A DNA stretch of 64,000 nt from Escherichia coli (GTDB lineage Bacteria; Pseudomonadota; Gammaproteobacteria; Enterobacterales; Enterobacteriaceae), in NCBI RefSeq assembly GCF_044324875.1, contig NZ_CP172185.1. One strand, 5' to 3'. This document shows positions 19,770-20,006 of this stretch, one piece after another. Positions within the stretch are counted from its first letter, which is position 1. Each line of letters opens with the position of its first letter. The position numbers and the translations under genes are program-made. The notes beneath the pieces were generated by a model. The model was not told the DNA's origin and did no database searches. It saw nothing but the letters and a program-made list of their open reading frames with translations.

Positions 19770-20006
19770 ATGATTTGTCCACGTTGTGCTGATGAACAGA
19801 TTGAAGTGATGGCGAAATCGCCGGTAAAAGATGTCTGGACGGTCTACCAGTGCCAGCATTGCCTCTATACCTAGCGCGATACCGAACCGCTACGTCGCAC
19901 CAGCCGCGAACATTATCCCGAAGCGTTCCGCATGACGCAGAAAGATATTGATGACGCGCCGATGGTGCCGAGCATCCCGCCGCTGCTGGCGGCAGATAAG
20001 CGTTAA
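19770..20006 (+). pseudogene. Decarboxylase small subunit D (EcdD/KpdD/BsdD-like) interrupted by in-frame amber codon
   Basis: ATG 19770 opens MICPRCADEQIEVMAKSPVKDVWTVYQCQHCLYT then TAG at 19872..19874; same frame continues RDTEPLRRTSREHYPEAFRMTQKDIDDAPMVPSIPPLLAADKR to TAA 20004..20006 (78 codons if read through). Confidence 0.7.

Follow-up and report, generated by a model that had tools for sequence, protein, structure and literature searches.

A young amber codon at a former Dcm site in the subunit D gene of an Escherichia coli UbiD-family decarboxylase operon

Introduction

A 64,000-nucleotide stretch of Escherichia coli DNA (contig NZ_CP172185.1 of assembly GCF_044324875.1), hereafter the window, carries between rpoS and mutS a three-gene operon, B, C and D, for a decarboxylase of the UbiD family. 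By family, the enzyme is a non-oxidative, prFMN-dependent decarboxylase of hydroxyarylic acids (4-hydroxybenzoate/vanillate). The frame of the last gene, which encodes the small subunit D, is interrupted by an in-frame amber codon. The question raised by this locus is how the stop came to be there and what it leaves of the enzyme. A preliminary description of this DNA, made from its letters alone, had proposed a sequencing error, a recent pseudogenisation of the operon or a strain relying on amber suppression. Here, we weigh these and other possibilities. The explanation that we favour, and hold to be quite likely as a whole, is a young nonsense mutation of Trp35 from TGG to TAG that would have arisen by deamination at a Dcm methylation site and inactivated subunit D, with the decarboxylase most likely inactive as a result.

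Results

An amber codon replaces a conserved tryptophan of subunit D

The D frame runs over 78 codons from ATG 19770 to TAA 20004-20006, with TAG at 19872-19874 as codon 35. It translates as MICPRCADEQIEVMAKSPVKDVWTVYQCQHCLYT, a stop, then RDTEPL...KR and the terminal stop. Coordinates and translation agreed with the preliminary description. The gene lies directly 3' of a UbiX-like B gene and a UbiD-like C gene, and with codon 35 restored to Trp its product scored 121.2 bits against the NCBIfam model NF041205 VdcD (cut-off 30), which bears out its identification as the decarboxylase D subunit. The window shares both the family and the B-C-D gene order with VdcD, EcdD, BsdD and ShdD (NF041205, PF26358; structures 7ae4, 7ae5 and 7ae7). 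As had been proposed, the 34-amino-acid product keeps four cysteines: C3, C6, C28 and C31, which make up the two CXXC knuckles of a zinc ribbon, are all encoded 5' of the stop. Their numbering is that of the ShVdcD zinc ligands, and R36 and E39 are conserved as well. The 34-residue fragment is itself assigned to PF26358 in the public index. However, a member of this family is expected to be a complete open reading frame (ORF) of about 70-80 codons, and the window frame stops at codon 35. Window D is a pseudogene member of the VdcD/EcdD family, and not a functional one.

Position 35 was Trp in 93 of 103 aligned sequences, a set made of family homologues, the repaired query and ShdD, and Trp is also found there in the solved structure of ShdD (PDB 7ae4). 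In GF131, the complete E. coli genome most similar to the window, the codon is TGG, from which the window differs by a single G-to-A change at 19873. The ancestral codon was thus TGG, and one transition accounts for the stop, both as first suggested. Downstream of the stop the frame keeps the conserved sequence of the family with no further damage. Since it still encodes family sequence, the amber codon is not a chance feature of an ORF.

The changed base lies in a Dcm site

The ancestral codons 34 and 35, ACC TGG, contain CCTGG, the only CCWGG motif in the D gene. The change turned CCTGG into CCTAG, at the G that pairs with the inner C of the complementary strand. ACC TGG was found in all intact alleles examined from E. 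coli, Salmonella and Klebsiella/Enterobacter. This Dcm context had escaped the preliminary description, as had the parallel recurrence of the stop across E. coli, Salmonella and Klebsiella reported below.

Dcm methylates the inner C of CCWGG on both strands. CCWGG is a known hotspot of G:C-to-A:T transitions (PMC13250602), and in natural populations of E. coli and Salmonella the rate at Dcm sites is raised about 8-fold, according to Cherry 2018, quoted in PMC9520237 and PMC12344412. Dcm methylation has been reported for Enterobacteriaceae, according to reference 7 in PMC6591954. Repair by Vsr is mostly limited to stationary phase (PMC3527292).

The sequence of events that we propose is as follows. 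The inner C of the complementary strand, paired with the middle G of the Trp35 codon, would have been methylated by Dcm in this strain. Deamination of the resulting 5-methylcytosine, rather than a replication error, would have produced a T:G mismatch, and this mismatch, on escaping Vsr very-short-patch repair, would have been fixed as CCTAG. The combination of an easily mutated site with an accessory operon would then lead to repeated knock-outs at the tips of many lineages.

A precedent comes from the lacI gene, in which Coulondre, Miller, Farabaugh and Gilbert reportedly traced amber hotspots in 1978 to deamination of 5-methylcytosine at CCAGG Dcm sites. The motif, the methylated position, the transition, the amber product and the independent recurrence are common to lacI and window D. 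They differ in that the lacI changes turn CAG (Gln) into TAG on the coding strand within CCAGG, whereas in window D the methylated C lies on the non-coding strand and TGG (Trp) becomes TAG within CCTGG. They differ also in the kind of evidence: here it consists of population data rather than a dcm+/dcm- experiment, and the excess over control codons is modest and roughly measured.

The same stop recurs on independent E. coli backgrounds

The exact 34-amino-acid product was found in 309 index blocks, with 222 contigs labelled E. coli. A possible origin of the TAG alleles in Shigella was considered and dropped, the NCBI labels being E. coli. We then counted distinct backgrounds from an alignment of the loci. 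Here and below, these counts are lower bounds, made on at most 10 places per query and without a phylogeny. TAG at D-W35 occurred on at least seven distinct haplotype backgrounds among nine TAG sequences examined. Compared with the window, the TAG-bearing D haplotypes showed up to 12 differences in 237 positions, and over 5.2 kb the divergence among TAG backgrounds reached about 3.9%.

Several of these loci (designated by L numbers) were next to identical to complete genomes that carry TGG. Indeed, the G-to-A change was the sole difference in 6,300 bp between L003 and the O157:H7 strain JEONG-1266, between L005 and 118UI, and between L007 and GF43, while L002 differed from 503025 by this change and one other single-nucleotide polymorphism (SNP). 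Such near-identity of TAG loci to TGG genomes shows the amber events on the backgrounds compared to be independent and very recent, and not one old allele moved by recombination.

A side observation was made on the 503025 lineage. The complete genome of 503025 (L013) has a frameshifted C gene and a D gene that is still TGG; in L002 and L008, drafts that are near-identical to it, the amber codon of D comes in addition. This is a case of stepwise decay of the operon.

To see how the allele is distributed among complete RefSeq E. coli genomes, we used a 55-nucleotide megablast query centred on the variant base (position 28), which detects only haplotypes with identical flanks, and we ran it for two haplotypes. 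Among the genomes that this seeded search can test, the TAG allele gave 0 matches. The TGG control queries gave 930 and 1,972 matches of 2,414 locus-carrying genomes, each figure applying to one haplotype. The absence of TAG set against such abundant TGG controls indicates that the D-W35 amber is a rare allele, found only at lineage tips.

The stop is found in Salmonella and Klebsiella

The same 34-residue truncation of D was recorded in 855 contigs of Salmonella enterica and 101 contigs of Klebsiella pneumoniae. In K. pneumoniae, TAG was present on at least three haplotypes that lay 8-12 SNPs apart, and in Salmonella on two backgrounds among the loci examined. In a large S. enterica clone (L019 with 21 similar places; L022 was noted too) the Trp35 codon is TGA and not TAG, and this clone probably makes up most of the 855 contigs. 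In three K. pneumoniae loci we also noticed an ORF for a toxin of the Hok/Gef family between D and mutS (L023 3525-3728, L024 3576-3728 and L025 3525-3728).

The preliminary description would have taken orthologues that end naturally at this position as a refutation. Taken literally, such orthologues exist, as 34-residue alleles are recurrent, but a natural short form is not what these alleles represent: they are recent, derived and near-identical to intact relatives.

Dcm-site codons compared with other codons of the operon

As a control, all codons of B, C and D that lie one transition from a stop were enumerated, and the truncated products given below were looked up exactly. Four Trp codons of the operon have the CC-TGG context, namely, D-W35, C-W70, C-W111 and C-W463, and the counts given here for Dcm sites cover the first three. 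Truncated products were found on 222 contigs for D-W35, 160 for C-W70 and 20 for C-W111. The non-Dcm codons gave 68 contigs for C-Q71, 27 for C-W50, 20 for D-Q57, 13 for C-W96, 11 for C-Q88, 4 for C-Q160 and 3 for C-Q113. The two largest counts were both at Dcm sites, and a rank test worked by hand on the contig counts, which are confounded by clonality and take no account of phylogeny, gave a one-sided p of about 0.04. Counted as backgrounds, the Dcm sites reached at least 7 (D-W35), 9 (C-W70) and 8 (C-W111), and the non-Dcm sites at least 4 (C-Q71), 2 (C-W50) and 3 (C-W96). C-W70 and C-W111 are likewise turned into TAG time and again in other E. coli.

Only one such stop was present per locus. 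The O157:H7 background has three of them in three samples: TAG at D-W35, TGA at C-W70 and TAG at C-Q71. Incidentally, in three strains with nonsense codons in the C gene, rpoS was split into two ORFs of 158 and 172 or 221 and 119 amino acids (L062 242-1233, L063 172-1163 and L073 242-1233). Judging from the sequence, these are rpoS null alleles adjoining decarboxylase knock-outs.

The stop is recent and the rest of the operon is sound

In a comparison of 13 E. coli sequences, the changes unique to the window lineage numbered four in B, two in C and one in D, all of them synonymous; not one non-synonymous change was found in the three genes. Seven synonymous changes against none argue that purifying selection acted on the operon along most of this branch and that the stop is young. 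That B and C are intact likewise argues for a recent loss. Thus, the earlier proposal of a recent pseudogenisation of the operon held for its first part and not for its second: pseudogenisation is recent, and decay of the whole operon is not seen, as D alone is affected and B and C are intact with synonymous lineage-specific changes only.

Truncated subunit D should be unable to activate subunit C

Without VdcD, the VdcC of the Sedimentibacter and Bacillus enzymes has next to no activity (PMC8379154). The same work describes VdcD as a zinc ribbon that packs against VdcC through its beta sheet and tail, with R12, R36 and E39 forming inter-subunit salt bridges, and the only deletion tolerated was that of residues 59-68, the tail being dispensable (PMC8379154). 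R36 and E39 were nearly invariant in our 103-sequence alignment. An AlphaFold model of E. coli D (predicted local distance difference test score 92.7) places beta1 at 11-16, beta2 at 24-28, beta3 at 34-36 and helices at 41-44 and 57-61. A product ending at T34 keeps the four zinc-binding cysteines and loses beta3, R36, E39 and 44 of 78 residues. By comparison, the known active truncation of VdcD is the engineered V59X only, in which the Pro-rich tail is lost (PMC8379154), and the window truncation removes far more.

By analogy with these enzymes, truncated D should be unable to activate subunit C. Given that VdcC requires VdcD and that beta3, R36 and E39 are lost, the decarboxylase is probably inactive in the window strain. 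D closes the operon, ahead of a stable hairpin, so that B and C would still be made, with no polarity effect.

Alternative explanations

The alternative that survives best is one in which the loss was driven mainly by selection: inactivation of a decarboxylase that turns phenolic acids into phenol or guaiacol would be advantageous in some niches, and the Dcm sites would merely be the easiest places to break. Many different knock-outs in one operon, three of them in the O157:H7 background alone, speak in its favour, and so do the 503025 lineage with its frameshifted C, the large Salmonella clone with TGA and the fact that the operon is present in only 2,414 of 5,426 complete E. coli genomes, fewer than half. 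However, the nonsense alleles examined were all at tips, 0-2 SNPs away from intact relatives, no D-W35 amber was met among the complete genomes searched, and B and C are under purifying selection where the operon is present. This pattern resembles mutation-selection balance or neutrality more than sweeps. We consider selection unlikely as the main driver, and it may add to the mutational bias.

Less probable still, and put forward here as a speculation, is a wider reading in which the operon is repeatedly knocked out under selection in host-associated Escherichia, Salmonella and Klebsiella, with the four Dcm-site Trp codons as weak points that would speed the loss. What we see would then be a slow, biased on/off toggle and not a one-way pseudogene. 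Indeed, Vsr converts the T:G mismatch in CTAGG back to CCAGG, so that heteroduplexes with intact alleles would favour a return to TGG.

A third possibility was an error of sequencing or assembly at a methylated site, such as a nanopore basecalling error at the Dcm motif; the preliminary description had allowed for a sequencing error. The consensus errors of older nanopore basecallers fell mostly on Dcm motifs (PMC6591954). Also, the only exact match to the window, L006 (GCA_900482385.1, contig UDIE01000012.1), which is identical over 12,105 bp, may be the same assembly. Yet in the four comparisons between TAG loci and near-identical complete genomes, the other 19-22 CCWGG sites per 6.3 kb were unaltered. 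Over 30 kb, the window differed from its nearest relatives by 357 ordinary substitutions and had 66 of 74 Dcm sites in common with them, with just two changes that bear the inner-C signature. The errors at many Dcm motifs of one contig expected from a basecalling artefact were not found. Moreover, the allele turns up in three genera and many unrelated samples, in assemblies from NCBI, ENA and Logan. Given the many independent assemblies that share the allele, and with the Dcm sites around it unaltered, a sequencing error is unlikely, and we give it very little credence.

The third proposal of the preliminary description, a functional amber codon with full-length D still made by way of a suppressor tRNA or programmed readthrough, fares worse again. 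Natural amber suppressors exist in some coliforms, and the frame 3' of the stop is undamaged. However, a recent mutation explains this undamaged frame equally well. The stop is not conserved: it stands at lineage tips only and was never seen in the complete genomes searched, with 0 TAG against the 930 and 1,972 TGG controls, and the four TAG alleles compared were one or two changes away from an intact relative. In addition, none of the four tRNA calls in the 64-kb window was a suppressor or had a CUA anticodon. Amber suppression finds no support here, and we regard it as highly improbable.

Finally, a single ancient amber allele spread among lineages by homologous recombination is almost certainly not the explanation, even in a region known to be a recombination mosaic (PMC4209514), as the TAG alleles differ from one another at SNPs 8 nucleotides 5' and 19 nucleotides 3' of the stop (gene positions 96 and 123) and match their own TGG relatives over 6.3 kb (three by this base alone, the fourth with one SNP more), so that an imported tract would need to be shorter than 27 nucleotides.

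The locus and its surroundings

The rpoS-mutS segment of the window reads nlpD, rpoS, a divergent MarR-family gene, B, C, D, convergent pphB, a Sel1/TPR gene and mutS. This region is polymorphic in E. coli, with slyA/kpdR-like, kpdB, kpdC and kpdD patterns, and the window shares the gene set of the enterohaemorrhagic and enteropathogenic type. Like strain 042 and its relatives, it also carries pphB and the Sel1/TPR gene. The literature on the region deals with the presence or absence of whole segments, whereas the window shows a point knock-out within kpdD/ecdD. The closest complete RefSeq E. coli genomes are 98.5-98.8% identical to the window over stretches of 10-20 kb, and the window lineage is without a close representative among the 5,426 complete genomes. 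The features of the operon and its flanks are collected in Table 1.

Table 1. Features of the decarboxylase operon and its flanks in the window
Feature	Position	Strand	Evidence or remark
MarR-family regulator gene	17185..17592	-	Divergent from the operon; NCBIfam MarR-family matches
Second lost Dcm site, at G45S	17459..17463	+	CTAGG in the window, CCAGG in 12 of 12 other E. coli
Subunit B gene, UbiX-family flavin prenyltransferase, intact, 197 amino acids	17739..18332	+	NF041206 VdcB, 312.8 bits (cut-off 290)
Subunit C gene, UbiD-family decarboxylase, intact, 475 amino acids	18332..19759	+	NF041204 VdcC, 789.2 bits (cut-off 650)
C-gene Trp codons in CC-TGG Dcm context	W70 18539-18541; W111 18662-18664; W463 19718-19720	+	All TGG in the window
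Shine-Dalgarno AAGGAG, 6 nucleotides 5' of the D start codon	19758..19763	+	Direct sequence reading
Subunit D, translated 5' part, 34 codons	19770..19871	+	C3, C6, C28, C31, beta1 and beta2
Former Dcm site, now CCTAG, ancestrally CCTGG	19870..19874	+	Amber 19872-19874; changed base 19873 (G to A)
Subunit D remainder, untranslated, codons 36-78 and TAA	19875..20006	+	In frame, conserved; one synonymous lineage-specific change
GC-rich hairpin between convergent D and pphB	20016..20043	.	Folding -20.8 kcal/mol, z = -3.69, 0 of 200 shuffles as stable

The hairpin between D and pphB, detected by folding and missed by a simple terminator scan, is probably a bidirectional terminator. The MarR-family gene has 135 amino acids according to the annotation in relatives, and its open frame extends to ATG 17625; the gene at the same position is called a MarR-family regulator in the annotations of GF131, O157:H7 and 042. 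In the 135-amino-acid numbering it carries V49A (17447) and G45S, both unique to the window among 13 E. coli sequences. G45S is a second change with the inner-C Dcm signature, 2.4 kb from the amber codon. At the far end of the window, 63110-63557, lies a tRNA cluster made of Ser-GCT, Arg-ACG and Arg-ACG. An antisense tRNA-Arg(TCG) call by ARAGORN at 63226-63297 overlaps an Arg-ACG gene on the opposite strand and is probably spurious.

Discussion

Several points weigh against a young Dcm-site mutation as we propose it, or against parts of it. The first set concerns the control codons. Contig counts are inflated by clonal expansion, and about half of the control matches are genes cut at contig ends; taken raw, such counts are weakly informative as a mutation spectrum. 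Nonsense transitions outside Dcm sites (C-Q71, C-W50, C-W96 and D-Q57) also recur on several backgrounds, and in a database this large some recurrence is expected at any site. We also tried to read the TAG:TGA ratio as a mark of inner-C deamination and gave this up, since Trp codons outside Dcm sites are biased to TAG as well, 4:1. TGA alleles are found at D-W35, in the large Salmonella clone, and at C-W70, in O157:H7, and deamination of the inner C cannot explain TGA. The effect of the Dcm hotspot is thus one of degree: it adds to knock-outs that occur at other codons as well, and its direction is as predicted.

A second set concerns the window strain itself. Methylation in this strain is an assumption, dcm and vsr lying outside the 64-kb window, and the loss of activity is drawn by homology from the Sedimentibacter and Bacillus enzymes. 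L006 may be the very source of the window, in which case this lineage lacks independent confirmation. A near-identical TGG relative of the window was sought among the complete genomes and none was found, the best being 98.8% identical.

A full-text literature search on the gene names of subunit D returned no account of this allele among the top-ranked papers. The specific case appears to be undescribed, yet it is of a known kind: the D amber is an ordinary, young pseudogene from a known mutational mechanism, and it does not reveal a new one. For annotation, it means that window D is to be recorded as a pseudogene and the decarboxylase as predicted inactive, although B and C look perfect. It also means that identical premature stops in unrelated strains do not necessarily imply shared ancestry or recombination. 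What the locus offers is a clean natural instance of a classical laboratory phenomenon, the amber hotspots at Dcm sites, here met in three genera in parallel and, within one operon, in two genes.
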